Shown here in pieces: positions 1,678 to 41,736 of a DNA stretch of 44,379 bases. A program made the position numbers and the translations under genes. This DNA comes from Escherichia phage PEC9. Numbering within the stretch: the first letter of the stretch is position 1; every line of letters begins with the position of its first letter. The notes below the pieces were generated by a model. That model saw nothing but the letters and a program-made list of their open reading frames with translations. It ran no database searches and had not been told where the DNA came from. The stretch lies in sequence record ON548431.1; one strand, given 5' to 3'.

Positions 1678-1968
1678 ATGGATAAGCTAAACGAGTGGTT
1701 ATTCGCCCTTGCGTGTCTGGCTGGCGGCTTCGTAGGCGCACGCATTCATGGCGAGGCTACGAAAGGGCCGCTAAACTTCGTTTTGTATGTTGTAGTTGGC
1801 TTCCTGTGTGCCATATTTGGCGCACCGGCTATCGCTGAGTGGGCTGGTTTGTCGGGTGAGCGCACTGTCGCCGGTTTAGGCTTCGTAACCGCGATCTTCT
1901 GGATGCCAATCGCCGACCGGATCAGGGAGACTATTGCGTCGTTCCTACTTCCGGGGGGTGCAAAATGA
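1678..1968 (+). CDS. Putative holin
   Basis: 96 aa with several hydrophobic helices; first gene of a three-gene block ending in the endolysin. Confidence 0.5.
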   Translation: MDKLNEWLFALACLAGGFVGARIHGEATKGPLNFVLYVVVGFLCAIFGAPAIAEWAGLSGERTVAGLGFVTAIFWMPIADRIRETIASFLLPGGAK

Positions 1969-2210
1969 TTATCTCCGTCCTGTTGTTTGTTATCATAGGG
2001 GCTTCGTCCCTGTTTAACGTATATGCGCCGTCCGTTCAGGATGGTATCTTAGGCCGGGTGCTGTATCTGTTAACGGCAATGATCTGTCTTATCGGATTGT
2101 TGCAAACAGGAGACGTATCTGATACCACCTGGACCGCGTTAATCTGGCTGTTTGCATTGCGCACCCTGCGTAATGCTGTTTTGAATGGGGTAAAACATGC
2201 GATTCAGTGA
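1965..2210 (+). CDS. Membrane protein, possible second holin or antiholin
   Basis: 81 aa, two hydrophobic segments; start overlaps holin stop (ATGA); directly upstream of endolysin. Confidence 0.4.
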   Translation: MIISVLLFVIIGASSLFNVYAPSVQDGILGRVLYLLTAMICLIGLLQTGDVSDTTWTALIWLFALRTLRNAVLNGVKHAIQ

Positions 2211-2688
2211 CAACGGTCTACGATTTACGGCAGCCTGGGAGGCTTTCAGCCCGGTGCCGTATTTCGCGACCAAGAAAGAGCAGGCCCGCGGCCTGTACAC
2301 CTGGGGTTATGGTCATACCGGCACTAATCCGCCTCGAAGCATTACCCGCGAGGAAGCGCTGGCACTTCTCAAGCGCGATGTGGCGTATGCCGAGGATTGG
2401 GTGAACAAATACGCACATCCGAGCATTAACCAGGCGCAATTCGACGCGCTGGTGGACCTGGTAATCAATGCCGGTCCGGGGCCGATCGTACCGGATGACG
2501 TCGCGAATGATTTCGATGATGCGGTGCGACTGGGAGACTGGGCGAAGGTCCGTGCTACTCTGCCGCAGTTCCGCAAGCAAGGTGGGGAAGTGCTTAAGGG
2601 TCTGGTACGCCGTGCAATCGGCAGACAGGCGTTGTTTGATGGTAAGCAGTGGGACGTTGCCGAGAAAATCGGGCGTAACGCTGCATAA
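2197..2688 (+). CDS. Endolysin, phage lysozyme-like (GH24-type inferred)
   Basis: 163 aa; N-terminal Glu in WEAF, YTWGYGHTG segment, C-terminal GGEVLKGLVRRAIGRQALF typical of phage lysozymes. Confidence 0.7.
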   Translation: MRFSDNGLRFTAAWEAFSPVPYFATKKEQARGLYTWGYGHTGTNPPRSITREEALALLKRDVAYAEDWVNKYAHPSINQAQFDALVDLVINAGPGPIVPDDVANDFDDAVRLGDWAKVRATLPQFRKQGGEVLKGLVRRAIGRQALFDGKQWDVAEKIGRNAA

Positions 2689-2704
2689 TACGAGGTAACA
2701 CAGT

Positions 2705-2872
2705 ATGTTAAAAAGCATTCTTGATCATAACGCCGACGCGCTCGCCGCGCTGGCTAAAACCGAAGACCCCGGCGCCCGCGCTATCATCGCGGACACTATC
2801 AACCACGCTGGGGTCTTCGATGCGAAGCTGCCAAGCCCACCACCGCAGGATGCATCCGGCCACGCAGCGTAA
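2705..2872 (+). CDS. Small hypothetical protein (55 aa), below ORF-track cut-off
   Basis: ATG at 2705 after GAGG; codons stepped by hand to TAA 2870-2872; followed by terminator. Confidence 0.3.
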   Translation: MLKSILDHNADALAALAKTEDPGARAIIADTINHAGVFDAKLPSPPPQDASGHAA

Positions 2873-2880
2873 ACAATTAA

Positions 2881-2904
2881 GCCCGGTTAATTCCGGGCTT
2901 TTTA
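2881..2904 (+). terminator. Rho-independent terminator
   Basis: GCCCGG-TTAATT-CCGGGC hairpin followed by TTTTT. Confidence 0.55.
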
Positions 2905-2967
2905 TTGCTTGACTCGCAACCAACATAGACGCCATACTGCGACCAATCAACGAGAGGAGTAATCAAG

Positions 2968-3048
2968 ATGGCACGTAAAGATATTTGGGTATTAGCGATC
3001 TGGACCACCGCGGCTTTTATCGGCATGGTTATTTGCGAATTGATATAG
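2968..3048 (+). CDS. Possible hydrophobic micro-peptide (26 aa)
   Basis: Strong RBS GAGGAG 7 nt before ATG 2968; translation MARKDIWVLAIWTTAAFIGMVICELI; stop TAG 3046-3048. Confidence 0.25.
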   Translation: MARKDIWVLAIWTTAAFIGMVICELI

Positions 3049-3061
3049 CCCGCCGCCATAC

Positions 3062-3087
3062 GGACCGTGGTATATTGTCCACGGTCC
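3062..3087. promoter_or_regulatory. Perfect 9-bp inverted repeat GGACCGTGG / CCACGGTCC with 8-nt AT-rich loop
   Basis: Read directly; lies 22 bp upstream of ATG 3110; no T-tract follows, so not a classical terminator. Confidence 0.4.
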
Positions 3088-3109
3088 ACTAATCAGGAAT
3101 TAATTAAAT

Positions 3110-4252
3110 ATGCACCCGCAAACTAAAATTACCGATGAGCAATTGATCGCAGAAATTCAGGCAGGGACTACGGTTAAAGAGATTGCGAAGAAATACGGGA
3201 TTGCCCTGCGCAATGTCTATATGCGCAAAGCCCGCCTGTCGAAAAAGGGAATTGGTCACGGCAATGATGCCGTGATCCGTAAGCGCGTTGCCGATGGTTT
3301 TGGGGTTAAGCGCGTATCGGCCCTGGTGCGCGGAAATGGCGAAGAGGTCATGTCGTGGGTCATCACTGAGCAGGACAAGGAGCGCCAACTCGAAGCTATG
3401 CGCGCTGTTGTCGAGGGTATGAACAGCGAAATCACACCGGCAGCGCCTGTAAACGCCCCGCCAGTACCGATCCAGGCGCTCGACTTGCTCAACCTGTACA
3501 CCGTGTCAGACTTTCACCTGGGAATGCTGGCATGGGGTGAGGAGACTGGCGAAGACTGGGATATGGCGATCGCCGAAGACTTGTTCTACCGCTGGTTTGT
3601 CGAAGCCTTCGCCCGCGCACCGGACGCAGGCACTGCCGTTATCAATATCCTCGGGGATATGGCCCACTTTGATAGCCTGGATGCAGTCACCCCGGCAAGC
3701 GGTCACGTACTGGACGCCGACACCCGCTACCAGAAACTGGTCCGATACATGATTCGCATGGTGCGCAACGTCGTAGAACTTGCGCTGCAAAAACACCACA
3801 AAGTCAAACTGCTAATCGTCCAGGGTAATCATGACGAATCCGGTATGATTTGGCTTGCTGAGATGTTCAATACCTTGTATGAGAACGAGCCGCGCGTCGA
3901 TGTGGACACGTCCCCGGACGTCTACAAAATGGTGCAGCACGGTAAGACTACGCTATTTTTCCACCACGGGCACAAAGCGCGATTCGATGTTATCGAGCAG
4001 GTTATGATCGCTAAATTCAGACAGGCGTTCGGGTCGAGCGAATACAGCTACGCGCACGTAGGCCATTTGCACCACCAGAAGATTGTTGAATCCCGCAACA
4101 TGATTGTTGAACAGCACCGGACGCTCGCAGCGAAAGACGCCTACGCCAGTCGTGGCGGTTGGATGTCTGGTCGCAGCGCCAACGTCATTACCTACAGCGC
4201 CAACTACGGCGAAGTAGCGCGCTTAACCATTAGCCCAGAAATGTTGAAGTAA
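3110..4252 (+). CDS. HTH domain fused to calcineurin-like metallophosphoesterase
   Basis: 380 aa; N-terminal helix-turn-helix-like segment (TVKEIAKKYGIALRNVYMRKARL); phosphoesterase motifs SDFHLG, GDMAHFD, GNHDE, HHGH, GHLHH in canonical order. Confidence 0.6.
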   Translation: MHPQTKITDEQLIAEIQAGTTVKEIAKKYGIALRNVYMRKARLSKKGIGHGNDAVIRKRVADGFGVKRVSALVRGNGEEVMSWVITEQDKERQLEAMRAVVEGMNSEITPAAPVNAPPVPIQALDLLNLYTVSDFHLGMLAWGEETGEDWDMAIAEDLFYRWFVEAFARAPDAGTAVINILGDMAHFDSLDAVTPASGHVLDADTRYQKLVRYMIRMVRNVVELALQKHHKVKLLIVQGNHDESGMIWLAEMFNTLYENEPRVDVDTSPDVYKMVQHGKTTLFFHHGHKARFDVIEQVMIAKFRQAFGSSEYSYAHVGHLHHQKIVESRNMIVEQHRTLAAKDAYASRGGWMSGRSANVITYSANYGEVARLTISPEMLK

Positions 4253-4382
4253 CGACAACCAGTAATCCTCCCAGCCTGCCGATTTGGTGGGCTTTTTTGT
4301 GCCTGTTATAATCCCCATTAGATGGCAGGGCCGTCTCCTATGTTGCCGATGGTCGGCGCATATGAACAAAAGGGCTTATATC

Positions 4383-4934
4383 ATGGCAGAAATCAAAGTT
4401 AAGGGCCGACGCGCCAAACTGGACGGACGAGTCGCAGTTACCCCGCGCCGTAAACCCGGCGAGCAAACCGAGCATACCAATCTCGGACCTGAAATCGAGT
4501 ACGGAAAGCGCCGTAAAGGCGGCAAATGTGGACGCCCTACTGACTACCGATCCGTTTACTGCGACCAGCTTCGCCGCTATTTTGCCGACGCCGACGCCTG
4601 GCAGGTCAACTACTCCGATAAAGGCGCTGCGCAAGTAATACCCCGCAACAAAATGCCAACCTTCGGTCGATTTGCCGCGGAAATCGGCGTGGGCGTAGCT
4701 TGCCTGTATCGCTGGGCGCGTGCGCATGAGGAGTTCGCTGAGGCGATGGCGGACGCAATGGAGTTACAAAAAACCTTCCTGATGGAAGCTGGTGGCGTAA
4801 CCATCGCGGCGGGCTTCGCTACATTCCTGCTTAAAGCAAACCACGGCGTCCGCGACGATGTGCCGCTGGATGACGACGAAGATGATAACGGCGACGTCGT
4901 TGTGGAGCCTACCGGCAAAGGCCAGGGTGAATAA
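4383..4934 (+). CDS. Terminase small subunit
   Basis: Immediately upstream of and overlapping the large subunit (TAATG); acidic C-terminus; start ATG 4383 chosen within ORF 4284-4934, alternative ATG 4362. Confidence 0.55.
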   Translation: MAEIKVKGRRAKLDGRVAVTPRRKPGEQTEHTNLGPEIEYGKRRKGGKCGRPTDYRSVYCDQLRRYFADADAWQVNYSDKGAAQVIPRNKMPTFGRFAAEIGVGVACLYRWARAHEEFAEAMADAMELQKTFLMEAGGVTIAAGFATFLLKANHGVRDDVPLDDDEDDNGDVVVEPTGKGQGE

Positions 4935-6319
4935 TGCGTAACTATGCGGCAGAACACCGCGCCCTTGAACGAGCGATCGCAAAGCGAAACAGACCGCCGC
5001 GCCCGACACGCGTTGCGCAGGCCGTCCGCCTTTACCGGCCAGATTGCTTGCCGCACCAGGTTGAACTACTGCGCGACACGAAGACTAAAATCCTCGGCCT
5101 GTGTTCCGGCTTCGGCGGTGGAAAGTCGTGGGTCGCTGCGCGTAAGGTCATCCAGCTTTTAACCCTGAACCCCGGTCATGACGGCATCGTTACAGAACCG
5201 ACTATTCCCCTTCTGGTTAAAATCATGTACCCGGAATTGGAAAAGGCGTTTGATGAGGCTGGATTCCGGTGGAAGTTCAATAAGCAGGACAAGATCTATA
5301 ACGTGCTGGTGAAAGGGAAATGGACCCGCGTTATCTGTGAATCAATGGAAAACTATACCCGCCTGATCGGGGTCAACGCCGCGTGGATTGTTGCCGATGA
5401 ATTCGACACTACGAAGCAAGACGTCGCGCTGGCGGCATATCACAAACTGCTCGGTCGTCTGCGTGCGGGCTTCGTCCGCCAGTTCGTCATCGTGTCAACG
5501 CCTGAAGGCTACCGGGCGATGTACCAAATTTTCGAGGTGGAGAAAGACAACCAGAAACGCTTGATCCGGGCGAAGACCACGGACAACCACCATTTACCGG
5601 CAGACTTTATCGACACGCTGCGTAGTCAGTACCCAGCTAACCTGATCGACGCGTACTTGAACGGCCTGTTTGTTAACCTTACGTCGGGCGCGGTATACAA
5701 GATGTTTAACCGTGAGGAGAACGCAAGCACCGAAGAAGTGCAGCCGGAAGACACGCTGATTATCGGTATGGACTTTAACGTCACGAAGATGGCGGCGGTT
5801 GTGTACGTCAGACGGCAGCGAGTCACCGAGAACAAGGAGTTCCGCGACGAGATTCACGCGGTGGGCGAATTTGTGGACCTATTTGATACCCCGGCTATGA
5901 TTGAGGCGATCGAGGAGCGCTACCCCGATCATTGTGCTGCCGGTCGTGTTGTCGTTTACCCGGATAGCAGCGGCAAATCACGCAAGACGGTCAACGCGTC
6001 GTCGTCCGATATCGCGCAACTGGAAGACGCAGGCTTTGATGTGGAGTATGACAGCGTTAACCCGCCTGTTAAAGACCGATTGATCGCGATGAATACGATG
6101 ATGTGCAACTCGAAGGGCGTGCGCCAGTATTTTGTCAACCTGGATAAATGCCCTACACTAGCGAAATGTCTGGAACAGCAGGTGTACGACCTGAAGAAAG
6201 GCGAACCGGATAAAACTGCCGGTGTGGACCACATGAATGACGCGGCGGGCTACCCTATTGCGCACTTGTTCCCTGTGATTCGTCCGATCGCCGTTGTTCC
6301 AGCCGTAGACTTCTACTAA
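4934..6319 (+). CDS. Terminase large subunit
   Basis: 461 aa; Walker A-like GFGGGKS near N-terminus; position before portal. Confidence 0.8.
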   Translation: MRNYAAEHRALERAIAKRNRPPRPTRVAQAVRLYRPDCLPHQVELLRDTKTKILGLCSGFGGGKSWVAARKVIQLLTLNPGHDGIVTEPTIPLLVKIMYPELEKAFDEAGFRWKFNKQDKIYNVLVKGKWTRVICESMENYTRLIGVNAAWIVADEFDTTKQDVALAAYHKLLGRLRAGFVRQFVIVSTPEGYRAMYQIFEVEKDNQKRLIRAKTTDNHHLPADFIDTLRSQYPANLIDAYLNGLFVNLTSGAVYKMFNREENASTEEVQPEDTLIIGMDFNVTKMAAVVYVRRQRVTENKEFRDEIHAVGEFVDLFDTPAMIEAIEERYPDHCAAGRVVVYPDSSGKSRKTVNASSSDIAQLEDAGFDVEYDSVNPPVKDRLIAMNTMMCNSKGVRQYFVNLDKCPTLAKCLEQQVYDLKKGEPDKTAGVDHMNDAAGYPIAHLFPVIRPIAVVPAVDFY

Positions 6320-6330
6320 GGAAACCGACC

Positions 6331-7851
6331 ATGACCGTTAACGTTGACAACCAGCACCCGCTCTATGCGCGCATCGCGCCAGAGTGGAAAATGATTCGCG
6401 ATTGTGTAGCAGGGGAGCGCGCCGTGAAGGCGTGCGGACCATTGTACCTGCCACACCCAGCCAGCGGCGACACCACCGACCCGAAATCGCGTGCGCGCTA
6501 TAAGGCATATAAGCAACGCGCTGTCTTCCTGAATGCCACCGCCCGAACCCTTAACGCGCTGTTAGGCGTAGCCTTCGCCAAACCGGTGAGTATGGACCTT
6601 TCCGGGGCAATGGCGGACCTGATTGATGACGTAGACGGCAGCGGGATGCCCCTGGCGCAACTCCTGCGCGGCGCTATGTCGGAAGTGCTGCAATCGGGCC
6701 GTGCTGGCTTTATGGTGGACTACGACCGCCAGGCTAACTTTGATGAACTGGGTAACGTAGTGCCGCAGACAGCCGCTGAAATGGCGACACACCGCCCGCT
6801 TATCCGCCTGTATACGGCAGAGCAGATCATCAACTGGCGGCAGACCCACGGTGTCGACACGCTAATCGTGCTGAAGGAAACGGACGAAATCAGCACCGAA
6901 GACCCGGACGACTTCGCAAACCACGAGGTAACCATCTGGACCGAGCTTCGCATGATTGACGGCAAGGCACATGGTCGACGCTGGTTTTACAACGCGGACA
7001 CGTCAGACGTGCAGATGGACTTGCCGCGCGGCTTCACCCGCACCGACTTAGTGCCGCTGGTGGATGCCTCCGGTAATGCGCTTACTCAACTGCCATTTTG
7101 CTGGTGTGGTGCTGTGGACAACAACGCGACGCCGGACGCCGCACCGCTGGCGGATATTGCATCCATCAACATTAAGCACTACAACGCCGAAGCAGACGTC
7201 GCCGAGATTGCGCACATTGTGGGCCAACCTACACTCATTGCGACCGGTCTGACCCAATCATGGGCCGATAAAAACCTGAAGGGCGGCATCGCACTGGGCG
7301 CGACTAAGGGCGTTATCCTGGGGCAGAACATGGACGCTAAACTTCTTCAGGCGGAGGAGCGCAACTTGTCTGTTGCCCTGTGTGAGCGTCGAGAATTGCA
7401 AATGGCTAAACTGGGCGCTGCCCTGGTTGAGAAAGGGACTGCACCTAAGACGGCAACCGAAGCGGCCTACGATGCGCAGACCGATAACAGTATCCTGTCG
7501 CTTATTGCCGGTAATGTCGAGAAGGCTTTCAACCGTGCGCTGCAAATTGTCCAGCTATTCACTGGCGACACCGCCGACCAGCGCGTAACGCTGAACAAGT
7601 TCTACACTGAAATCACGGTTGATGCGCAGCTTATGACCGCGATGATGGCAGGTGTGCAGACCGGTACTGTCCGACTGGCGGATTTCATCAAGTGGATGAT
7701 GGCCCAGGGCGTTATCGATGACTCGCAAACCGTTGAGCAGGTGGAAGACGAATTGCGAAATCAGAATCCATTGCCTCAAATGTCCCCGGATGCGGTAGAA
7801 TCTGCCGAAGAAGACCCGGACAAGGTAGCGGACAATGGCGAAGACAATTAA
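6331..7851 (+). CDS. Portal protein
   Basis: 506 aa directly after terminase large subunit, RBS AAGGAAA, acidic C-terminus; call by size and order. Confidence 0.7.
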   Translation: MTVNVDNQHPLYARIAPEWKMIRDCVAGERAVKACGPLYLPHPASGDTTDPKSRARYKAYKQRAVFLNATARTLNALLGVAFAKPVSMDLSGAMADLIDDVDGSGMPLAQLLRGAMSEVLQSGRAGFMVDYDRQANFDELGNVVPQTAAEMATHRPLIRLYTAEQIINWRQTHGVDTLIVLKETDEISTEDPDDFANHEVTIWTELRMIDGKAHGRRWFYNADTSDVQMDLPRGFTRTDLVPLVDASGNALTQLPFCWCGAVDNNATPDAAPLADIASINIKHYNAEADVAEIAHIVGQPTLIATGLTQSWADKNLKGGIALGATKGVILGQNMDAKLLQAEERNLSVALCERRELQMAKLGAALVEKGTAPKTATEAAYDAQTDNSILSLIAGNVEKAFNRALQIVQLFTGDTADQRVTLNKFYTEITVDAQLMTAMMAGVQTGTVRLADFIKWMMAQGVIDDSQTVEQVEDELRNQNPLPQMSPDAVESAEEDPDKVADNGEDN

Positions 7852-8938
7852 TCAATATATGGCGGATCGAATGATTCGCCGACACATTTTCACCCAGCGC
7901 CTGAGTAATGACCAGGCGCGAAGGGTGCTGTCCATGTGGGAGAAGTTCCGGCCTACATTACTGGGGAAGCTGACCGAGTTGCTTGATGGCAAATCGTCAA
8001 TGAATAACCGGGCACTTTCCACGCTGTTAACGCAACTCGACAAGACCGTTAAAGCAGAATTGCGCACCGAGTTTAAGGTGTTGGCTGAAAGCCTTCAGGA
8101 GTTTGCCGACACGGAGGCTGATTATCTCGCCGACACATTAACGGCAGCGATCCAGCCGGTGGTCGCCGTACCTGCGGTCGAGGTGGTTGGCGTAGTGACC
8201 GGTGCGCAGATCGCAGCGACGGCTATGAAAAACCCGTTCCAGGGAAATACCATGATGCAATGGCCTGATTCATTGTCTGAGTGGACCAGGACGCAGATCG
8301 GGAATCAGGTGCGCGCTGGATTCATCCAGGGCAAGCCAACTATGGAAATTATAGCGGACGTGAGGCGCGCGCTCGGCGGTCGTAGTGCGCAAGCCATCTC
8401 GAGCGTTGTTAAGTCCGCAGTCAACCACTATGCGGCGACAGCCCGCGAACTAATGGTAAAAGCAAATGACGATATTCTCGAAGGTCGCCAATGGTTATCT
8501 ACATTGGACACGCATACTTCTCCCATGTGCCAGCTACGCGATCGCCTGTTTTATCCGGTTGATGTTACTCCCGACACCAAAGGAAAGCGCGGCGGGAAAG
8601 TGGTGGCTGGGTCACAATATGGCGCTGGTCCGGGCAAGTTGCATTATTGTTGCCGGTCGACGGAGACGTGGAAGGTTAAAGGCATGGAAGATTGGCCCAG
8701 TGGTAAGCGTCCGGCCCTGAAGGCTGATGCGGGTCGATTGCTGAGTGAGCAGGTCGACGCGCAGACTGATTTCTTCTCATGGGTGCAGCGCCAGCCGCGC
8801 CATATCCTGGAAGAATTATACGGAGTGCAACGCGCCGACCAGATTATGCGCGGCGTGAAAGTGCCGAAGATGTTCACCGATTCAGGCGAACTAATGACTA
8901 TCGCACAGCTTAAAAACCGGGGGTTATGGCGTGATTAA
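7835..8938 (+). CDS. Head morphogenesis (minor head) protein
   Basis: 367 aa directly after portal with overlapping start; Cys-rich C-terminal region; call by order. Confidence 0.55.
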   Translation: MAKTINQYMADRMIRRHIFTQRLSNDQARRVLSMWEKFRPTLLGKLTELLDGKSSMNNRALSTLLTQLDKTVKAELRTEFKVLAESLQEFADTEADYLADTLTAAIQPVVAVPAVEVVGVVTGAQIAATAMKNPFQGNTMMQWPDSLSEWTRTQIGNQVRAGFIQGKPTMEIIADVRRALGGRSAQAISSVVKSAVNHYAATARELMVKANDDILEGRQWLSTLDTHTSPMCQLRDRLFYPVDVTPDTKGKRGGKVVAGSQYGAGPGKLHYCCRSTETWKVKGMEDWPSGKRPALKADAGRLLSEQVDAQTDFFSWVQRQPRHILEELYGVQRADQIMRGVKVPKMFTDSGELMTIAQLKNRGLWRD

Positions 8939-9260
8939 ATATGCAGCGATTGGACTGATTATCGGTCTGGCGGTAGGATTCTGGCTAGGTGACTCCTATC
9001 GTGCTGGCGTAGTGGCGGAGGCGGCGCAAGAAGCGCAAGCCCAAGCCCAACGGCAGCAAACTAAAGTCGTTGAGCGCTCCGTGCAGGCCGAACAAGCCCG
9101 CGACGTAGAATACCGGACTATCACGAAAGAGGTTGTTAAATATGTTACGCGCCCTAACCGCCCTGATTGTAGTTTTGATGTTGAGCGCGTGCGGATCAAG
9201 CAACGTGCCGTTGATGCCGCTAACGGAGTCGGCACTGCGACCGCCGTGCAAGTTCGATAG
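8931..9260 (+). CDS. Putative i-spanin (Rz-like)
   Basis: GTG start overlapping previous stop; N-terminal transmembrane helix AAIGLIIGLAVGFWLG; Gln/Ala-rich coiled-coil-like region; o-spanin ORF begins inside it in another frame. Confidence 0.5.
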   Translation: MIKYAAIGLIIGLAVGFWLGDSYRAGVVAEAAQEAQAQAQRQQTKVVERSVQAEQARDVEYRTITKEVVKYVTRPNRPDCSFDVERVRIKQRAVDAANGVGTATAVQVR

Positions 9261-9372
9261 CCCGTCCGCAGACCCCGACGAGGATTTGATGATTGACGTG
9301 AAAAATATGGAATGCGGGGCGAAGCTAAGGGCGCAGGTGCTGGAGTTGCAGCAAATAATTAAGGGGCCGTAA
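9142..9372 (+). CDS. Putative o-spanin (Rz1-like outer-membrane lipoprotein)
   Basis: Signal peptide with lipobox LMLSAC; Pro-rich mature part; overlapped arrangement with upstream gene; ATG 9142 chosen (ORF track starts at TTG 9133). Confidence 0.55.
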   Translation: MLRALTALIVVLMLSACGSSNVPLMPLTESALRPPCKFDSPSADPDEDLMIDVKNMECGAKLRAQVLELQQIIKGP

Positions 9373-9384
9373 TGGCCCCTTTTT
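9362..9384. terminator. Bidirectional rho-independent terminator between convergent genes
   Basis: AGGGGCC-GTAAT-GGCCCCT hairpin followed by TTTTT on plus strand; minus-strand gene ends at 9387. Confidence 0.5.
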
Positions 9385-9386: not shown

Positions 9387-10151
9387 TTAGCGCGGAATGC
9401 CGCAAATCTCGTTGAGTGTTTTCACATCCAGCGCCACCGCCGTGGATTTTGGCTTGTCCGGGTATGGGATGAATTGCTCAACTTCAGGCCATGCCTTAAT
9501 CAGCTTCTTGTCAGTATTGTGCAGGTCCAGTACACCGGTAACGGTGAGTTTGAACGCATCATACTTCGCGCGCAACTCGCGACGGGCCTTGTCGTTGCGG
9601 TCCAGGCGCTTACAGAAATCATGATCCGCCGGGAAATCTGCACGGCAGCGTGGCTTATAGATCGGCAGCGCTTTCCCGTCCTCGTCCACTTCACACACTG
9701 AAGCCAGCATAACTTCTTCAAACCCCGGTACGATATCGCCGAGATCGGGAGATAGCTTATTCATGTATTTATATTCCCAGTATCCGCGATGTACGCGGTA
9801 TTGGTGGCCGTCACCGCTCAAGGATAAGGTGCGAACATTTCCGCCTGCGTTGATTTCGAAAGTGGCGTCGTAAACGCTGCCGATACCTTTCGGGCGGTCG
9901 GTGTTATAACTATATGTCGCCTTGTTGGTGTAGACGCAGACGCCGTACATCTGCGACGGGTCATCGCTGATTGCCTCGATACGCTCGCGTAGCGCGGAGA
10001 ATGTGCGAATGCCGTCCGGCATACAGTCCAGCGTGATTGCGTACGCCAGATCGCGTGAGTCCATCATGATTGTTTTGGCTTCGGTAGCGATTTCGTGGTC
10101 GCGCAGGATGTTAGCCAGGATCTGATTTTTAATATCTTTCGTCAGTCTCAT
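9387..10151 (-). CDS. Hypothetical protein (254 aa), accessory gene inside virion module
   Basis: Minus-strand ORF with GAGGA RBS; C-terminal Cys-x16-Cys-x7-His-x2-Cys cluster suggests a zinc-binding domain; no family recognised. Confidence 0.55.
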   Translation of the reverse strand: MRLTKDIKNQILANILRDHEIATEAKTIMMDSRDLAYAITLDCMPDGIRTFSALRERIEAISDDPSQMYGVCVYTNKATYSYNTDRPKGIGSVYDATFEINAGGNVRTLSLSGDGHQYRVHRGYWEYKYMNKLSPDLGDIVPGFEEVMLASVCEVDEDGKALPIYKPRCRADFPADHDFCKRLDRNDKARRELRAKYDAFKLTVTGVLDLHNTDKKLIKAWPEVEQFIPYPDKPKSTAVALDVKTLNEICGIPR

Positions 10152-10189: not shown

Positions 10190-10504
10190 TTAGTTAAATT
10201 TGATGTTGCCACCGGTGGAAGTTAAGCGGGCACATACAGCTTCAACGGCATCAACGCACATGAAATCGTTAAAGGCTTCGACCAGGGCGTTTATGAAAGA
10301 TGCCGGAACCAGGCCGCAAGCCGGATTATCGAATGCCGCGGAGTTGATCGCCGCTTTTGCCGCTTCAGAAGCATTCATGCTCTGGCACAGATTCAGCGCT
10401 TCCGCGTTACGCATTGCGTGAAAGGTAAAGGTATTCGCTACGGTAGCTTTATTGAAACGGGCCATTGCGGCGTCTACTGGAGTTGCTACGGTCATGTTAG
10501 TCAT
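10190..10504 (-). CDS. Hypothetical protein (104 aa), accessory gene inside virion module
   Basis: Internal ATG at 10504 with AAGGAAG RBS chosen within ORF 10190-10558; Ala-rich, no motif recognised. Confidence 0.45.
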   Translation of the reverse strand: MTNMTVATPVDAAMARFNKATVANTFTFHAMRNAEALNLCQSMNASEAAKAAINSAAFDNPACGLVPASFINALVEAFNDFMCVDAVEAVCARLTSTGGNIKFN

Positions 10505-10532
10505 TTTGTCTTCCTTCATATCTCTGTTGGTG

Positions 10533-10556
10533 TGCAACCAATATACTGCAACCAAC
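10533..10556. promoter_or_regulatory. Two direct copies of TGCAACCAAT / TGCAACCAAC in a divergent intergenic region
   Basis: Read at 10533-10542 and 10547-10556, between minus-strand start 10504 and plus-strand start 10659. Confidence 0.45.
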
Positions 10557-10576
10557 ATTCACAATGCAAGCGAATT

Positions 10577-25378: not shown

Positions 25379-25401
25379 GAAGGGGCCATCTGGCCCCTTT
25401 C
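25379..25401. terminator. Bidirectional terminator hairpin between convergent genes
   Basis: AGGGGCC-ATCT-GGCCCCT hairpin followed by TTTC; plus gene ends 25374, minus gene ends 25401. Confidence 0.5.
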
Positions 25402-26366
25402 TAATACATGTTAGGGATGACTAGTAACGGTGTGGGTACGGTTACATTACGATTAGGAATCTGGAATTGCTGCCGTGAGTAGTTACCGATCACGCGATTT
25501 CGTGCCGCGCTAACCACGTTTCCCGCCATGCGTATCCCGTTCATTCGCACGTGGTTATATCCGCTGTTGTTCTCAATGAGCGCGCCGGTATATGAAAGCT
25601 GTACTAGGCTGTTGCCGATATTCTGACCGCCAGTGCCGATATTAATTACGGAATTGAGGACGAACGGCTTGTTAACGGTAGAGAACGTGACCTGTCCCTG
25701 GTTGTTAGTCATGGTGATCCCGGCCCCCGGCGTGGGTGGTGTATTGTTGAATATTACCAGGTCCATGTCCACCGAAGCCGCCACATCGTCGATACCACCA
25801 TAGGACGCGTTGCGGACGATAATACTGCCACCATCGAAGCCTACTGATACGTTGCCGTCATCCCAGCGGGCGAACGGGACACCGCTAACTGGCAAGGCCA
25901 TACTCCCGTTGACGCGCACGCGCTTCGCGTATCGGCAGGTCATCAGCTTTGCCACGTTGGATATTGCGGTGAAGTCCGTTGAGTTAGCTACGAGCAGGCC
26001 CGCGTTGCGCGAACCAACCGGCAGCACTTCCATTATGACGCCCGCCCATTGTGGTAAACCAGAGTACGCGCCATACGCATCATCACCGCGCAGGGTGATT
26101 CCGCTATTACCGTTGCGAGTAACAGACGTGACGTAAAACGGATCGGGTATTACCAGGGTCTGGTCGAACACTTCAATCACCTCTACCGGGCGAGTGAGCG
26201 CGACGATGACCTGCGACCCCGCCGTAAGAGGGGTGTTAATGGTTAGCGTCTTGTTGGATTGCGCCCGCTGGTTAAAGCTGGTGCAGTATGACGGCGCGCG
26301 GAGTCCCGCGGTTATCTCCATGACAGGTCTACCGTCGTTGTAGTCTATTAATATTCCAGCGCCCAT
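25401..26366 (-). CDS. Beta-rich tail-associated protein, possible receptor-binding protein
   Basis: 321 aa from ATG 26366 (ORF track starts at GTG 26375); Gly/Asn/Ser/Thr/Val-rich; antisense to flanking tail genes and coupled to upstream lipoprotein gene. Confidence 0.4.
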   Translation of the reverse strand: MGAGILIDYNDGRPVMEITAGLRAPSYCTSFNQRAQSNKTLTINTPLTAGSQVIVALTRPVEVIEVFDQTLVIPDPFYVTSVTRNGNSGITLRGDDAYGAYSGLPQWAGVIMEVLPVGSRNAGLLVANSTDFTAISNVAKLMTCRYAKRVRVNGSMALPVSGVPFARWDDGNVSVGFDGGSIIVRNASYGGIDDVAASVDMDLVIFNNTPPTPGAGITMTNNQGQVTFSTVNKPFVLNSVINIGTGGQNIGNSLVQLSYTGALIENNSGYNHVRMNGIRMAGNVVSAARNRVIGNYSRQQFQIPNRNVTVPTPLLVIPNMY

Positions 26367-26368
26367 TA

Positions 26369-26590
26369 TTACCACTCCCGTGATTTAACTGAAACAGTGC
26401 CGGAAAAATTGCCGTCACTGTCGGCAGACAGACCAGTGAAGCGCATGTCCACATCCCCGGACGGGATTTTTCGCCCGTCAACGTAACGCAACATGCAGCT
26501 GCCGTACGCAACCGTAATGCAATCGCCGTTGTTGCGTTCTACGGCACAACCGGACAAAAGAACCGCACAAATCATAATTAAAGTTTTCAT
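26369..26590 (-). CDS. Small lipoprotein, candidate superinfection-exclusion protein
   Basis: 73 aa from ATG 26590; signal peptide with lipobox LLSGC; two further Cys in mature part. Confidence 0.5.
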   Translation of the reverse strand: MKTLIMICAVLLSGCAVERNNGDCITVAYGSCMLRYVDGRKIPSGDVDMRFTGLSADSDGNFSGTVSVKSREW

Positions 26591-26644
26591 GGTATCATCA
26601 CCTATATTTGGTCGAGTTTTAGTATTACACCGCTCGATCAAGAA

Positions 26645-26654
26645 TGCAACCAAT
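26645..26654. promoter_or_regulatory. Recurrent motif TGCAACCAAT upstream of tail fibre gene
   Basis: Exact 10-mer 17 bp upstream of ATG 26671, in a divergent intergenic region. Confidence 0.45.
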
Positions 26655-26670
26655 TTACGAGGATTTAGCT

Positions 26671-28503
26671 ATGGCAGCGGGTACACTATCCGTAACGAAT
26701 AACAGCAAGGCGGTTGTCGGGGTAGGCACGACGTTTACCGCGTTTAAAGCCGGAGACTTCTTATCGCTGGTAGTGGGGCAAGTACCCTACACTGTTGCGA
26801 TCGCGTCCGTAGAAAGCGACACCGCGATTACGCTTGTGCTGCCGTTCGACGGACCCACGGCAACTGGCCTCGCGTGGGATGGCGTTAAGCGCGATACCAT
26901 GTCGCTGGCAACGATGGGCGTAACAGTACAGGCGCAGAAAGCGTTGCGCTTGATGATCGCGGACGAAAACAACTGGCGCGCAATCTTCGGAGACGAGGAA
27001 GAAATCGCGGTAACGCTGCCGAACGGGCAAGTTATGCAGGGTATGTCGTGGGGCTATCTGTCGCAATTGCTGAAGGAAGTTGACCCCGTTGAAATGCGCA
27101 ACCTGCAACAACAAGCCGCGGCATCTGAAGCAGCAGCGCTGGTATCGCGTAATGAGGCCGAAGGCTTCAAGAACGATACCAATACCATCAAGACGCAGAC
27201 CAACCAGATTAAGGCAGATACGCAGGCTATCCGCGACGCCACCAATACCATCAAGACGCAGACCAACAAGATTAAGGCAGATACGCAGGCCATCAAAGAC
27301 CAGACGAACCAGATCAAGACTGACACCGGCGTTATGAGGGACCAGGCCAACGCTGCGAAGACTGACGCGCAAGCTGCCAGCGCAGCCGCGCAGGGATTCC
27401 GCGATCAGGCCGAGGAGTGGGCGCAAAGCGTTAACGCGGATAACCTGCTAACAAAATCCGGCAACCTGGCAGGGCTTGCGGATAAATCGGCGTCGTGGAA
27501 GAACCTTATGCCTGCGGGGCCGCTGCGAATTGGGGCGCACCCCGTTGCGGACCTGGATGCCGCGACCCGGAAATGGACGCTGGAGCGTTTTACCAAAGGC
27601 GTGGCGGAGTCGTCGTGGACTGTCAGGAAAACCGTCACCACCACACCACAGAACGGCACTGTCGTCCGTGGCGGTGAGGTGGAATCGAGATATTCCAACC
27701 CAACATCTACGCAGTTCGCCCGTCTGTACTCAAGCTCTGTATTTGGTTCTTCTAACGCGGCTGTTGTTGAGGCAGAGGGTTCTTCCAGGCACGCTTATAA
27801 ATTCTATGAGGATGGCACAGTTGACTTCCGACAGTCAGGGAAGACCAACCCATTCCGCATGTATACAAATATTGGAACATGGAATGGCATAACGGACGCC
27901 ACGGCATCCAACTTGACAACTAACGGAATGGACAGGGTGGCCATTTCGAGCGGCTCAGATACTCTGGTGCACGGATATTCTATCGGCGGCACCAAACCTA
28001 ATGGATATCCAACAAAGGTTGGATATCACATGTATATTCCAGGCAATAATGCATTTGGTATTGCTTGCATGGTAATCGGTGGGGATAACGGAAAATTTTG
28101 CCGTTACTTTTTTGACATTGATGGTCTAATATATGGTTCGACCGATTACGGGAACTTCAGTTATATGAAAAATGGCACTTCTGACTTACGTGTAAAACAC
28201 GGCATCGCCCATGTTGGAGTTGACAAATCATACTCTAATATTAAAGGGCTGGAATTTGTAGAGTTCATTTATGATAATGACGAACAAAATCGAGTTCGGC
28301 ATGGCGTGATTGCACAGCAAGCAGAGGTTGTTGAGCCTTTATATGTCAAGACGCGCAAATATGTTGGCAATAATCCAGGAGAGATTGTGGAGCAGAAGGA
28401 ACTGGACACTACGCCGATGCTTCTGGATACCATGCATGTTGTGCAGACGTTGATGCAGAAGATCGAGGCTATGGAGGCCGAGATCGCGGCGCTGAAGAAA
28501 TGA
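26671..28503 (+). CDS. Tail fibre with predicted C-terminal intramolecular chaperone domain
   Basis: 611 aa from ATG 26671 (GAGGA RBS); internal repeats TNTIKTQTNQIKADTQAI; C-terminal region ending ...EAMEAEIAALKK resembles autocleaving chaperone domains of phage fibres. Confidence 0.65.
   Translation: MAAGTLSVTNNSKAVVGVGTTFTAFKAGDFLSLVVGQVPYTVAIASVESDTAITLVLPFDGPTATGLAWDGVKRDTMSLATMGVTVQAQKALRLMIADENNWRAIFGDEEEIAVTLPNGQVMQGMSWGYLSQLLKEVDPVEMRNLQQQAAASEAAALVSRNEAEGFKNDTNTIKTQTNQIKADTQAIRDATNTIKTQTNKIKADTQAIKDQTNQIKTDTGVMRDQANAAKTDAQAASAAAQGFRDQAEEWAQSVNADNLLTKSGNLAGLADKSASWKNLMPAGPLRIGAHPVADLDAATRKWTLERFTKGVAESSWTVRKTVTTTPQNGTVVRGGEVESRYSNPTSTQFARLYSSSVFGSSNAAVVEAEGSSRHAYKFYEDGTVDFRQSGKTNPFRMYTNIGTWNGITDATASNLTTNGMDRVAISSGSDTLVHGYSIGGTKPNGYPTKVGYHMYIPGNNAFGIACMVIGGDNGKFCRYFFDIDGLIYGSTDYGNFSYMKNGTSDLRVKHGIAHVGVDKSYSNIKGLEFVEFIYDNDEQNRVRHGVIAQQAEVVEPLYVKTRKYVGNNPGEIVEQKELDTTPMLLDTMHVVQTLMQKIEAMEAEIAALKK
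27178..27303 (+). repeat. 63-bp tandem direct repeat (2 units plus partial third) inside tail fibre gene
   Basis: Unit 27178-27240 and unit 27241-27303 differ at a few positions; partial third unit follows. Confidence 0.7.
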
Positions 28504-38510: not shown

Positions 38511-39933
38511 TGCTTAAGTCCTCGTCGGTAGCTTCAGACCACGCGGGGCGCGGGTCGTCGATTGGTGCTAACACCGGTTTTGCAGGTGCGCGTGTGATTT
38601 TAGCACACAGCTTCGCCCACACTTTCGGCTTCTCGTCCTTCAATACCTTCTCGGCATCCGTAGGACTGAGCAATGTTTCTTTGTACATCACATCGCGCTT
38701 GATCCTGGCCTTCGTGAAGATTTCAATCACTTCGCTCTCGTCCGCCCACTTACGGATACCTTCCTTACCGGCAACCATCTTGAGGCCCAGCGATTCGCCA
38801 TCGCCAGCCATGACCGCCTTGAATACCGCGGACTCGATAGCCTTGATGTGCTGGCGCATTGCGTCCAGACCTTCATATGCCTTGCGAAGTTCCGCCGCGC
38901 TCATAGCGCCGGGGGCCGCTTCTTTCTTACCACGCTTCGCGCGTCGTGCCTCCTTCCGGGCTTCGCGGGCCATATTGCGGGCATGGTTGGCGCATTCTTC
39001 CTCTGTCGCAATACTCACGTCGTCGCCCAGATCGTCATCGGTTGCCGTTGGTGGTGTCATCGTGTCGATTGCGGCCTTAGTGCGGGCACTACACTGATCC
39101 GCAAATCTGCACCACTGGCACGCATCAACGCTGGGCCGGAAGTCGGCGCGGGTGAGTCCTTTTTTACCACGGGCGTACGCTTCCAGTGCGGCGATAGCAC
39201 GCTTGGACGCAAACTTCGCGAATATCTCCAGCGCTTCCACTGAGATATCCCACTCTGACGCCCCGCCGCAATACGGCTGGAAGATGACCAGGCGCACGGT
39301 CGTAATGTCATACATGGTTTGCAGCTTGCGCAGCAGGCCGAGCGCGTACAACATAAGCTGTTTGTTTTCTTTTGCCTCGACCTTATGTCGCCCGGTCTTC
39401 AGGTCGCCAACAATCAGCATGTACGTGCCGTCGGTCTTTTTCATGACCGTGACCATATCGGCAGTGCCGAACGTTTTAACCCTGTTGCCTTCGATCTCGA
39501 AGCCTGGGTGAAGGACGCGGGTCAGATCGGCGCGCATCTCAAGCTGGACAAACTCCGCCACTTCGAGGAGCGGTCGCCAGTGGTCGATGTACGCGTCGCA
39601 CTGTTTCACCATGTCGTCATTGACCAGTACGCCGCCTTTCGGTGCTTTCGGGTGCGCCTTTACTGGCCCCTTGCCTTCATTCTCGACGTAACATCCTTTA
39701 TACGTCTTTGCTGTTATCAGCTTTTCACCGGCGATAATGCGGTTTAGCACCACTTCAGATACGGTGTGCATACTCGTACCGTTAATCGCGGCTTGCCCGG
39801 ATTCGTTCGGGATATCTTTTTCTACCACCAGGGCGGCGGGACACCCCATCCATTTTTTAGCACCGGATGGCCCGAGTAATGAGTGTTCCGTATTGCTGCC
39901 GGATTGCGTTTTACGTTTTGGTTTAATCGCCAT
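38503..39933 (-). CDS. RecB-family (Cas4-like) PD-(D/E)xK nuclease with Fe-S cysteine cluster
   Basis: 476 aa; motifs D...GDLK, QLMLY (QxxxY) and four Cys (QPYCGG, CQWCRFADQC); basic/acidic C-terminal extension. Confidence 0.6.
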   Translation of the reverse strand: MAIKPKRKTQSGSNTEHSLLGPSGAKKWMGCPAALVVEKDIPNESGQAAINGTSMHTVSEVVLNRIIAGEKLITAKTYKGCYVENEGKGPVKAHPKAPKGGVLVNDDMVKQCDAYIDHWRPLLEVAEFVQLEMRADLTRVLHPGFEIEGNRVKTFGTADMVTVMKKTDGTYMLIVGDLKTGRHKVEAKENKQLMLYALGLLRKLQTMYDITTVRLVIFQPYCGGASEWDISVEALEIFAKFASKRAIAALEAYARGKKGLTRADFRPSVDACQWCRFADQCSARTKAAIDTMTPPTATDDDLGDDVSIATEEECANHARNMAREARKEARRAKRGKKEAAPGAMSAAELRKAYEGLDAMRQHIKAIESAVFKAVMAGDGESLGLKMVAGKEGIRKWADESEVIEIFTKARIKRDVMYKETLLSPTDAEKVLKDEKPKVWAKLCAKITRAPAKPVLAPIDDPRPAWSEATDEDLSNE

Positions 39934-40121
39934 TATTCCACCCTTGAAAACTGAGCTATATAATAATCGTGTTTAACATTTGCCTTCTTCGCTGCTTCGT
40001 TCATGGTTGAAGCAAGTTCGCTGGCTTGCGTCCAGCAGCTAACCCAGTTCTGATTCATAACGATTTCGGGTTGCTCATCGCCGGTAATACGGCAGCGAAA
40101 TAAAACAAAGAATGTAGCCAT
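39933..40121 (-). CDS. Hypothetical protein (62 aa)
   Basis: ATG 40121 with GGGAGA RBS, immediately after stop of upstream gene. Confidence 0.4.
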   Translation of the reverse strand: MATFFVLFRCRITGDEQPEIVMNQNWVSCWTQASELASTMNEAAKKANVKHDYYIAQFSRVE

Positions 40122-40373
40122 TTATTTTGTCTCCCAGCGGTCAATTGTTTTTGCTTCTGATGCAACGGCGAATCTAACATATTCTAGGTTGGAATCCGCC
40201 CAAATATAAAAGTCGGGATTAGTAAAGGTGGTGCGCTTAATTTGCGCGGGGGTGTTGCGGCGTTTATCAATTACGGCAACGCGCGATTGAAAGCTGCCGA
40301 TGCGTTCGAATAGCCAATAATATGGGCGCTGGTCGCGAGAATCCACCGCCTCGATTAATGTAAATCGTGCCAT
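40122..40373 (-). CDS. Hypothetical protein (83 aa)
   Basis: ATG 40373 with GAGGA RBS; preceded by terminator. Confidence 0.45.
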   Translation of the reverse strand: MARFTLIEAVDSRDQRPYYWLFERIGSFQSRVAVIDKRRNTPAQIKRTTFTNPDFYIWADSNLEYVRFAVASEAKTIDRWETK

Positions 40374-40380
40374 TGTCTCG

Positions 40381-40412
40381 TCCTCTAAAAAGAGGCCCGC
40401 TAATCTGCGGGC
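40381..40412 (-). terminator. Rho-independent terminator (minus strand) after first early gene
   Basis: Minus-strand reading: GCCCGC-AGATTA-GCGGGC followed by CTCTTTTT. Confidence 0.5.
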
Positions 40413-40995: not shown

Positions 40996-41198
40996 GGTAT
41001 ATCTCCGATTGGTTAAGTTTAGGTGTCGACCATTAACTTCGTCGGTGGCCTTAACATAGCGCCCGGTTGCGCGTTCTCCCTTTCGGGTAGTGGACCGGGT
41101 TATATAATCACGGTTGGGAATCCTGACACTTCGATCCGGCCCCTGCGTTGCCCCTCTCCAGTTTGCGTCCTGCATCCTGTCGACGGAGTGAATATTAG

Positions 41199-41208
41199 AT
41201 TGGTTGCA
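41199..41208. promoter_or_regulatory. Recurrent motif ATTGGTTGCA in divergent early control region
   Basis: Exact 10-mer between minus early gene (40995) and plus gene (41397). Confidence 0.45.
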
Positions 41209-41230
41209 GAAGGGAGTCAACAACTAATTT

Positions 41231-41265: not shown

Positions 41266-41336
41266 TAACCAATAAGAGACAATGAGACGGGAATTATTAT
41301 TACACGCGTGCGCGCCCGTTTCAATATCCAAAGGAT

Positions 41337-41726: not shown

Positions 41727-41736
41727 GGCAACGGCA

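Follow-up and report, generated by a model that had tools for sequence, protein, structure and literature searches.

A probable two-component spanin of overlapped architecture lies among the packaging and head genes of Escherichia phage PEC9

Two overlapping genes of Escherichia phage PEC9 (8931-9260 and 9142-9372) very probably encode the two-component spanin of a Dhillonvirus, an HK578/EP23-like E. coli siphophage, in the overlapped architecture (probability about 0.93). The putative spanin function is assigned from the defining features of such proteins and from curated homology, and all positions refer to the window, the whole 44,379-nt stretch of DNA analysed here. The Rz/Rz1-like pair proposed in the initial annotation, at ORF positions confirmed by the ORF list, was borne out by matches to spanin PHROGs, by purifying selection on both reading frames, by near-identical relatives annotated as spanins and by a curated census. 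The pair would complete the lysis gene set of PEC9, with two holins, an endolysin and the spanin, and its importance beyond correct annotation is small.

Table 1 Lysis genes, the neighbouring head gene and terminator-like hairpins in the window
Feature	Coordinates	Strand	Details
Holin 1	1678..1968	+	96 aa; phrog_2359 holin at 6.7e-31; hydrophobic segments; holin in KarlBarth annotation
Holin 2	1965..2210	+	81 aa; phrog_2508 holin at 8.8e-27; two TMD-like segments
Endolysin	2197..2688	+	soluble GH24-type phage lysozyme; PF00959 at 9e-21; phrog_7; no hydrophobic segment or signal-anchor
Terminator-like hairpin	2879..2900		closes holin-endolysin-ORF55 unit; terminators annotated equivalently in PTXU06 and WF5505
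Terminator-like hairpin	4273..4293	+	upstream of small terminase gene; equivalent terminator annotated in WF5505
Head-morphogenesis gene	7835..8938	+	Mu F / SPP1 gp7-like; phrog_241, E=8e-116
Predicted i-spanin gene	8931..9260	+	GTG start, 109 aa; ORF list, hydropathy, phrog_2536
Predicted o-spanin gene	9142..9372	+	76-aa precursor, +1 frame relative to i-spanin; ORF list, lipoprotein scan, PHROGs
Bidirectional intrinsic-terminator-like hairpin	9361..9381		AAGGGGCC-gtaa-GGCCCCTT followed by T run

The o-spanin gene starts out of frame inside the i-spanin gene, at an offset of 211 nt that gives the +1 frame, and the two genes share 119 nt. Because the o-spanin gene continues for 112 nt beyond the i-spanin stop codon (9260), it is not wholly contained and the architecture is overlapped; of the two terms used previously, "overlapped" therefore stands, whereas the lambda-type "embedded" does not. 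An AAGAGG Shine-Dalgarno sequence at 9127-9132 precedes the ATG at 9142, which is likely to be the o-spanin start (76 aa). The upstream TTG at 9133, which would give 79 aa, was rejected because it directly adjoins the Shine-Dalgarno sequence and because relatives, namely the BASEL and SO-1 records, are annotated from the equivalent ATG.

The i-spanin has one hydrophobic segment at residues 1-19 and none elsewhere (Kyte-Doolittle 19-residue mean 1.92), the hydropathy profile of a protein with a single N-terminal transmembrane domain (TMD, about residues 4-20), and its orientation is presumably N-in/C-out. The TMD is followed by a long predicted helix, a PNRPDC linker that contains the invariant Cys80, and a second short helix. 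In a single-sequence AF2 model, whose low confidence (mean pLDDT 57.6) makes it a rough indication of secondary structure only, helices span residues 3-72 and 84-97 with the linker at 73-83, and this helix-linker-helix arrangement agrees with the description of the EP23 subfamily (PMC6139136). Of the earlier wording "transmembrane coiled-coil protein", the first part is supported by hydropathy, whereas for the coiled coil there is only the low-confidence helix prediction. The protein matches phrog_2536 ("Rz-like spanin") at E=8e-36.

The N-terminus of the o-spanin, MLRALTALIVVLMLSAC followed by GSS, contains the lipobox LSAC with Cys17, as anticipated and as detected by the lipoprotein-signal scan and hydropathy. 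The +2 residue is Gly, and the Asp that serves as an inner-membrane retention signal is absent from this position; the sequence is predicted to be a signal peptidase II substrate. The 14 Dhillonvirus sequences compared, together with one Jerseyvirus and one Kagunavirus sequence, all have the lipobox Cys. In the predicted mature protein of ~60 aa, Cys36 and Cys58 are invariant, and a DxDEDL motif is present together with an amphipathic helix at the C-terminus; Cys36 and Cys58, together with Cys80 of the i-spanin, are candidate residues for homotypic intermolecular disulfides in the putative periplasmic parts. The o-spanin matches two "Rz-like spanin" PHROGs (phrog_5672 at 4e-26 and phrog_1267 at 1.5e-11). 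Neither the two spanins nor the two holins matched any Pfam model, and only PHROGs recognises these four proteins.

The pair had been placed after the head-morphogenesis gene and about 6 kb from the holin and endolysin genes (1678-2688), and the coordinates and the PHROG and Pfam matches agree with this split. The holin, holin and endolysin genes lie upstream of the terminase genes and 6.2 kb upstream of the spanin pair, and the head-morphogenesis stop codon sits 8 nt inside the i-spanin gene. The 7.7-kb block from the first holin to the o-spanin is collinear in 95 records and is split in others only by the record origin. Comparison of lysis-gene placement in relatives, recommended at the outset, revealed that the split layout is conserved across the genus Dhillonvirus and recurs in Jerseyvirus and Kagunavirus (the same layout was seen in KarlBarth, Shelanagig and K1ind3). 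It has been described for the Jerseyvirus SeF1 (PMC9409062) and, with the placement stated explicitly, for the Kagunavirus fBC-Eco01 (PMC9825357). In the literature on Dhillonvirus, we found no explicit statement of spanin placement, only the gene numbering in the P78 paper.

The layout makes it plausible that the spanins are expressed under late structural-gene control with the packaging and head genes, as had been suggested. They form the last cistron set of the terS-terL-portal-head-morphogenesis run, where they adjoin the head-morphogenesis gene translationally and have a strong predicted terminator behind them; given this position at the end of the run, the spanins would most likely be made late with the packaging and head proteins and would wait passively for the holin trigger. 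The hairpin at 9361-9381 is the top-scoring terminator of the scan on both strands, overlaps the o-spanin stop codon, ends the terminase-portal-head-morphogenesis-spanin run and faces the convergent Nmad5 gene; annotators of HK578, WFI and PTXU06 placed a terminator at the equivalent site. Alternatively, the split might have no regulatory meaning: leaky terminators would let a single long late plus-strand transcript, comparable to the lambda late operon, cover the holins, endolysin, packaging genes and spanins, the last of which would just lie a few genes further downstream. We regard this as a serious possibility, although not the favoured one. From 1678 to 9372, the only exception to the plus-strand orientation is one doubtful, non-conserved ORF on the minus strand, and a terminator-like hairpin at 1645-1670 lies directly against the start codon of the holin, which can be expressed only if at least this hairpin is read through or transcription starts within it. 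Against a single transcript, three strong sites consisting of a hairpin and a T run (2879-2900, 4273-4293 and 9361-9381) lie exactly at unit boundaries, and other annotators have marked terminators at the same sites in relatives (PTXU06, WF5505). Moreover, the first of these sites is followed by a promoter-like TTGACT-18-CATACT (2909-2938) and the second by an extended -10-like TGTTATAAT (4304-4312). The promoter and terminator calls are consensus matches whose totals are no higher than the shuffled expectation, which for the promoter-like sites also counts in favour of a single transcript, and for this reason we only infer the transcription units and their timing.

Placement among packaging and head genes is common to Dhillonvirus, Jerseyvirus and Kagunavirus, and in Dhillonvirus the spanins are also translationally abutted to the head-morphogenesis gene. 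That this placement has been functionally selected, and is not a historical accident, seems unlikely to us; if true, the amount of spanin and the time of its production could be coupled to virion assembly, independently of the separately bounded holin-endolysin unit.

No spanin candidate near the endolysin qualified in the PHROG, hydropathy and lipoprotein-signal analyses, in agreement with the initial annotation, which had held that the ORFs after the endolysin (2705-3048) are not spanins. The ORF at 2705-2872 (55 aa) has neither a TMD nor a lipobox and belongs to phrog_11068 (unknown function), and the remainder of this stretch encodes only a 26-aa peptide (2969-3049) that is a bare TMD. The minus-strand ORF at 2877-3089, which overlaps the same stretch, has no TMD, lipobox or PHROG match and is not conserved. 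The six-frame lipoprotein-signal scan of the 44 kb returned only three loci, whereas shuffled windows gave 0.2 each on average. A unimolecular spanin of the T1 gp11 type was rejected for each of them: the o-spanin and the only other good lipoprotein candidate in the window, at 26369-26590 on the minus strand, both lack a C-terminal hydrophobic segment, and the third locus (39737-39976) was set aside.

The pair is already known, and the finding is an ordinary one. Kongari et al. 2018 (PMC6139136) place the spanins of EP23, HK578, JL1, SSL-2009a and SO-1 in their overlapped "Jersey" i- and o-spanin families, for which they noted two helices with a linker and conserved o-spanin cysteines, and both PEC9 proteins are significantly similar to the listed members of the EP23-SO-1 subfamily. 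RefSeq annotates the same genes of EP23, SO-1 and HK578 as "Rz-like spanin", and the BASEL phages (KarlBarth, Oekolampad and others) annotate an i-spanin and an o-spanin at the same position. The novelty that had been implied for the pair thus fails: both the pair and its location apart from the other lysis genes are catalogued for the Dhillonvirus group. At the nucleotide level, the pair is 97.7% identical to that of EP23, 83.7% to that of SO-1 and about 84-85% to those of KarlBarth and Oekolampad. Homologues of both spanins were found in about 650 phage records, Jerseyvirus and Kagunavirus included, at 40-47% amino acid identity and with an invariant lipobox Cys, PPC, DxDEDL, Cys58 and i-spanin Cys80.

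A spanin of this kind would act in the last step of lysis. In the i-spanin, the N-terminal helix would serve as the inner-membrane anchor, leaving a mostly helical domain in the periplasm. The o-spanin would undergo lipobox cleavage and lipidation of Cys17, and its +2 residue, Gly and not Asp, would direct it to the outer membrane. By analogy with lambda Rz/Rz1, the two proteins may bind through their C-terminal parts and form disulfide-linked complexes that extend across the periplasm through the meshes of the peptidoglycan. These complexes would be freed by degradation of the wall, after release of the endolysin (2197-2688) by the holins (1678-2210), and would then fuse the inner and outer membranes, completing lysis.

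An inner-membrane protein and an outer-membrane lipoprotein could also serve a purpose other than lysis, for example superinfection exclusion or an interaction with the envelope during assembly. The distance of the pair from the holins and endolysin and its translational abutment to the head-morphogenesis gene would fit such a role, and for no member of this sequence family did our literature search find an experimental test (complementation, lipid labelling or mutant phenotype) that would prove a spanin function. However, the pair displays every sequence-level feature of a two-component spanin and is curated as a spanin, and this phage of a Gram-negative host has no other spanin candidate. 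In addition, spanins that are not linked to the other lysis genes have precedents, such as T4 pseT.3/pseT.2 (PMC6139136), and PEC9 already has a separate Cor-like lipoprotein candidate beside its tail-fibre gene. We therefore consider a non-lytic role very improbable and retain the assignment as a spanin.

Each of the two reading frames is a genuine gene on which purifying selection acts. In a comparison set of 14 Dhillonvirus genomes, down to 75% nucleotide identity, both ORFs are intact and free of indels in all 14, and the o-spanin is exactly 76 aa in every one, with its lipobox kept. Where the i-spanin frame is the sole frame (nt 1-211), synonymous and nonsynonymous differences number 1351:679 in the i-frame versus 194:1836 in the o-frame, and variation falls on third codon positions (46/70, versus 20 and 11 at the others). 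Where the o-spanin frame is the sole frame (nt 331-442), the counts are 825:336 in the o-frame versus 84:1105 in the i-frame and 87:1081 in the third frame, with 23 variable third positions versus 12 and 5; the i-spanin stop codon is the point at which both signals change over from one frame to the other. The outcome named as refuting in the initial annotation, that comparative analysis would show both ORFs to be non-coding, did not materialise. Although several GenBank records lack the o-spanin or give it an internal Met start (52 aa, without the signal peptide), the idea that the i-spanin frame alone is a gene and the lipoprotein ORF a chance open frame is refuted by the counts beyond the i-spanin stop codon, and further countered by the retained length and lipobox, by tblastn homologues of the o-spanin in 648 records, down to about 36% identity, and by the good Shine-Dalgarno sequence ahead of its ATG.

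Such incomplete annotation is frequent among GenBank Dhillonvirus records: the o-spanin is missing or is started at the internal Met27, at the cost of the signal peptide and lipobox, for example in PEC14, EP23p06, B2 gp38 and Envy gp6. phrog_5672 (47 positions) inherits the truncation from entries that start at Met27. Phage engineers who delete "hypothetical" genes between head genes should know that spanins lie there.

The Dhillonvirus pairs of EP23, HK578, JL1, SSL-2009a and SO-1, which belong to the short subfamily of the "Jersey" families, match the PEC9 pair in position, in the 76-aa o-spanin and in the lipobox, cysteines and terminator. The i-spanin has 109 aa in PEC9, EP23, HK578 and SSL-2009a but 102 aa in SO-1 and the BASEL phages, and nothing else of substance differs. 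Homologous overlapped i- and o-spanins with 40-45% amino acid identity occur in Jerseyvirus and Kagunavirus (Shelanagig gp008/009, K1ind3 ORF6/7, SeF1 Gp_009/010 and fBC-Eco01 Gp11/12). Like the PEC9 pair, they lie among head genes downstream of the head-morphogenesis gene, in a position directly ahead of the scaffold and major capsid genes, and the holin or holins and the endolysin are far off, upstream of the terminase, with the same holin PHROGs (2359 and 2508). They differ in their longer i-spanins of 128 aa, which have additional linker segments, in the one to three small genes found between the head-morphogenesis gene and the spanins, and in the absence of the convergent Nmad5 gene block that follows the pair here. 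With lambda Rz/Rz1, the pair appears to share the general design, a type II inner-membrane protein with a helical periplasmic domain and a small outer-membrane lipoprotein in the +1 frame, with periplasmic cysteines, whereas no sequence similarity was detectable through Pfam. Rz1 is wholly embedded in Rz, unlike the PEC9 o-spanin gene, and Rz/Rz1 directly follow S and R in one cassette. P2 LysB/LysC, which sit within the P2 lysis cassette, overlap as the PEC9 genes do but belong to a different sequence family. They are listed under "Overlapped" in the same census in which T4 PseT.3/PseT.2 provide the precedent for spanin genes unlinked to the holin and endolysin genes (PMC6139136). The T4 genes have the separated architecture, are unrelated in sequence, and belong to a phage in which all three lysis functions are scattered.

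The stop codon of the head-morphogenesis gene falls 8 nt within the i-spanin ORF, the GTG of which is preceded at 7 nt by a Shine-Dalgarno-like GGGGG run. In the o-spanin frame, ATG 9142, with AAGAGG 9 nt ahead, was taken as the true start of a 76-aa product. Since the two ORFs have 119 nt in common and the o-spanin extends 112 nt past the i-spanin stop, the pair is 'overlapped' and not 'embedded' as Kongari et al. 2018 (PMC6139136) use these terms; the initial annotation had used both words, of which only the first holds. In the PHROG search, the i-spanin matched the 'Rz-like spanin' family phrog_2536 (8e-36) and the o-spanin matched the 'Rz-like spanin' families phrog_5672 (4e-26) and phrog_1267 (1.5e-11); no Pfam model matched either protein. 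Homologues were found by tblastn in 666 (i-spanin) and 648 (o-spanin) phage records, mostly of Dhillonvirus, the genus of this phage, Jerseyvirus and Kagunavirus. In alignments with Jerseyvirus Shelanagig and Kagunavirus K1ind3, Cys17, PPC36, DxDEDL and Cys58 of the o-spanin are invariant (40-45% identity), as are P-x-R-x-x-C80-x-F of the i-spanin (PNRPDCSF in the window) and several of its helix positions.

Lipoprotein and transmembrane predictions, the check proposed initially, bore out both assignments. The o-spanin N-terminus, MLRALTALIVVLMLSAC followed by GSS, comprises a basic n-region, a hydrophobic core and the lipobox LSAC with Cys17, and has Gly at +2. Lipoprotein sorting in E. coli is governed by the +2 rule, by which this Gly predicts sorting of the 76-aa o-spanin to the outer membrane. 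Lipoprotein signals in a six-frame scan occurred at three loci in the 44-kb window, compared with 0.2 per shuffled window; besides the o-spanin, these are the Cor-like lipoprotein at 26369-26590 and a candidate at 39737-39976. In the 109-aa i-spanin, a Kyte-Doolittle scan detected one hydrophobic segment, N-terminal residues 1-19 (mean 1.92), and no second one. Its single-sequence AlphaFold2 model, of low confidence (pLDDT 57.6), has a helix (3-72), a linker (73-83, PNRPDC) and a second helix (84-97), consistent with the 'two helices plus linker' described for the i-spanin subfamily that includes EP23 (Kongari et al. 2018, PMC6139136). Of the coiled coil suggested earlier, the helix is thus predicted at low confidence and the coiled coil itself is unproven.

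We then compared the 442-nt spanin segment between the window and 13 further Dhillonvirus genomes, with pairwise nucleotide identity down to 75%, and found no indels. Every genome encodes a 76-aa o-spanin, with the lipobox kept as L[ST]AC or MSAC, and an i-spanin of 109 or 102 aa. At nt 1-211, where the i-frame alone is coding, variable columns numbered 20/11/46 at codon positions 1/2/3, and pairwise codon differences were 1351:679 synonymous to nonsynonymous in the i-frame versus 194:1836 in the o-frame. Past the i-spanin stop (nt 331-442), the columns were 12/5/23 at o-frame positions, with ratios of 825:336 in the o-frame versus 84:1105 in the i-frame; the shared stretch is under intermediate constraint in both. 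Because constraint is specific to the i-frame before the i-spanin stop and to the o-frame after it, the possibility that both ORFs are non-coding is excluded. In the 109-aa i-spanin, the final seven codons (9240-9260) show ratios of 12:281 in the i-frame and 123:97 in the o-frame, which shows that this tail evolves as o-frame sequence only. The 109-aa form occurs in the window, EP23, HK578 and SSL-2009a, and the 102-aa form in SO-1, the BASEL phages, WFI and Envy. The initial observation is confirmed, and its interpretation as a spanin pair is supported by the family matches, signals and conserved frames, with small corrections to its architecture and coiled coil.

Features of the lysis genes, the spanin pair and other loci in the window
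Feature	Coordinates	Strand	Family or remark
Holin	1678-1968	+	phrog_2359
Second holin	1965-2210	+	phrog_2508
Endolysin	2197-2688	+	PF00959
55-aa ORF	2705-2872	+	phrog_11068
ORF annotated in PEC14 and B2	2877-3059	-	terminator hairpin inside its 3' end
26-aa single-TMD peptide gene, MARKDIWVLAIWTTAAFIGMVICELI	2969-3049	+	strong Shine-Dalgarno GAGAGGAG
Metallophosphoesterase/exonuclease-like gene	3110-4252
terS	4362-4934
Head-morphogenesis gene	7835-8938		phrog_241, E=8e-116; upstream of i-spanin
i-spanin ORF	8931-9260	+	109 aa, GTG start
o-spanin open frame	9133-9372	+	+1 frame relative to i-spanin
Nmad5, 'nucleotide modification associated domain 5' protein	9387-10151	-	PF18757, 8.6e-59
122-aa protein	10190-10558	-	phrog_24635
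324-aa membrane protein	25401-26375	-	phrog_1265
Lipoprotein candidate, 73 aa, MKTLIMICAVLLSGC then AVE...	26369-26590	-	phrog_4281, 2.6e-32; Cor-like
Tail-fibre gene	26644-28503
Lipoprotein-signal candidate	39737-39976

The lysis module is split, as had been noted: the holins and endolysin lie 6.2 kb upstream of the spanins, followed in order by the 55-aa ORF, the metallophosphoesterase/exonuclease-like gene, terS, terL, portal and the head-morphogenesis gene. The same gene order holds across this 7.7-kb holin-to-o-spanin block in 95 phage records, and in many others the only break is the arbitrary point at which the record begins, as in KarlBarth (holins and endolysin 40992-42002, spanins 4548-4989). 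In a consensus scan, which alone is weak evidence as its terminator and promoter totals did not exceed shuffled expectation, the strongest plus-strand terminator-like hairpins were at 9361-9381, 2879-2900, 4273-4293 and 1645-1670. The hairpin at 9361-9381 overlaps the o-spanin stop and is also terminator-like in the opposite direction, towards the convergent Nmad5 gene. In PTXU06 and WF5505, other annotators independently marked terminators at the corresponding positions, and the one after the spanins is marked in HK578 and WFI as well. Promoter-like matches, TTGACT-18-CATACT (2909-2938) and TGTTATAAT (4304-4312), follow the hairpins at 2879-2900 and 4273-4293, respectively. Because the head-morphogenesis gene and i-spanin overlap, neither a promoter nor a terminator fits between them, and the spanins are most likely the last cistrons of a terS-to-head-morphogenesis unit, made late with it. 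Alternatively, transcription may run on past leaky terminators to give a single long late message, as it does in lambda; with the separate unit and the single transcript alike, we infer that spanin expression is late.

Upstream of the holin, 1637-1680 contains an extended -10-like TGATATAAT, then a hairpin of 10 bp (1645-1670) followed by a T6 run abutting the holin ATG (1678), with no Shine-Dalgarno in this stretch. Across seven Dhillonviruses it is ~97% conserved; most changes lie in the loop and one lies in TATAAT, and the stretch could be a regulatory structure controlling holin expression.

None of the three ORFs after the endolysin fits a spanin, in agreement with the initial annotation. 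The 55-aa ORF has no TMD or lipobox in signal and hydropathy scans, and the minus-strand ORF has no PHROG family match and is not conserved in relatives. The single-TMD peptide gene, downstream of the 2879-2900 terminator and the 2909-2938 promoter-like site, is kept at 26-29 aa in B2, Shigella phage 1b, WF5505, PTXU06 and BEK2-2, and is unannotated in most records. The 73-aa lipoprotein candidate, which adjoins the 324-aa membrane protein and tail-fibre genes, matches phrog_4281 and, weakly, Cor, a superinfection-exclusion protein. It is not a spanin and probably acts in superinfection exclusion or receptor masking.

The sole practical residue is annotation quality, as the o-spanin is omitted or mis-started at internal Met27 in many GenBank and RefSeq records. 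A start at Met27 gives a 52-aa product without signal peptide or lipobox, as in EP23 (4908-5066, EP23p06), B2 (7937-8095, gp38), and Envy and BEK2-2 (684-842, 'gp6'); PEC14, 100% identical in the spanin region, has no o-spanin CDS at all. The phrog_5672 model (47 positions) aligns only to o-spanin residues 32-76, which fits a model made from Met27-truncated entries. Dhillonvirus spanin-region sequence also occurs in MG065648.1 ('Campylobacter phage A144', 1-181, 99.4% identity) and OQ221563.1 ('Acinetobacter phage NJ01', 95.9%), likely through host mislabelling or contamination.

Mechanistically, peptidoglycan would hold back the spanin complexes until the endolysin, released by the holin, destroys it, and the freed complexes would then fuse the inner and outer membranes. 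No experimental test for any member of this sequence family was found in the literature.

The spanin pair of this phage is already known. Its region is 100% identical to that of PEC14 and 96-98% to those of EP23, HK578, JL1 and many other Dhillonvirus phages. Both genes are annotated 'Rz-like spanin' in RefSeq EP23 and SO-1, and 'i-spanin' and 'o-spanin' at exactly homologous coordinates in the BASEL phages KarlBarth, Oekolampad, PaulFeyerabend and GeorgBuechner; the 2010 GenBank record of K1ind3 already reads 'putative spanin ... overlapping gene'. Kongari et al. 2018 (PMC6139136) assigned the i-spanins and o-spanins of EP23, HK578, JL1, SSL-2009a and SO-1 to their overlapped 'Jersey' families, and described a shorter 'EP23 to SO-1' subfamily and two conserved o-spanin cysteines. 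The convergent Nmad5 two-gene block that separates the spanins from the scaffold gene, and whose second position holds a RusA-like or other gene in relatives (EP23, SO-1, WF5505), looks like a variable insertion because it is absent from Jerseyvirus and Kagunavirus. The split spanin placement is real but not novel, and is ordinary in this lineage. It recurs in Dhillonvirus, where holins 0031/0032, endolysin 0033 and spanin 0040 have been reported (PMC12677095), and in Jerseyvirus Shelanagig, where the spanins (6023-6518) lie between capsid-morphogenesis and scaffold genes and the holin and endolysin occupy 39644-40400; Kagunavirus K1ind3 has a similar layout. In Jerseyvirus SeF1, spanins Gp_009/010 are reported to belong to phrog_2536 and phrog_5672 and holins Gp_063/064 to phrog_2359 and phrog_2508, the same families as in the window (PMC9409062), and the unlinked spanins of T4 are textbook knowledge (PMC6139136).
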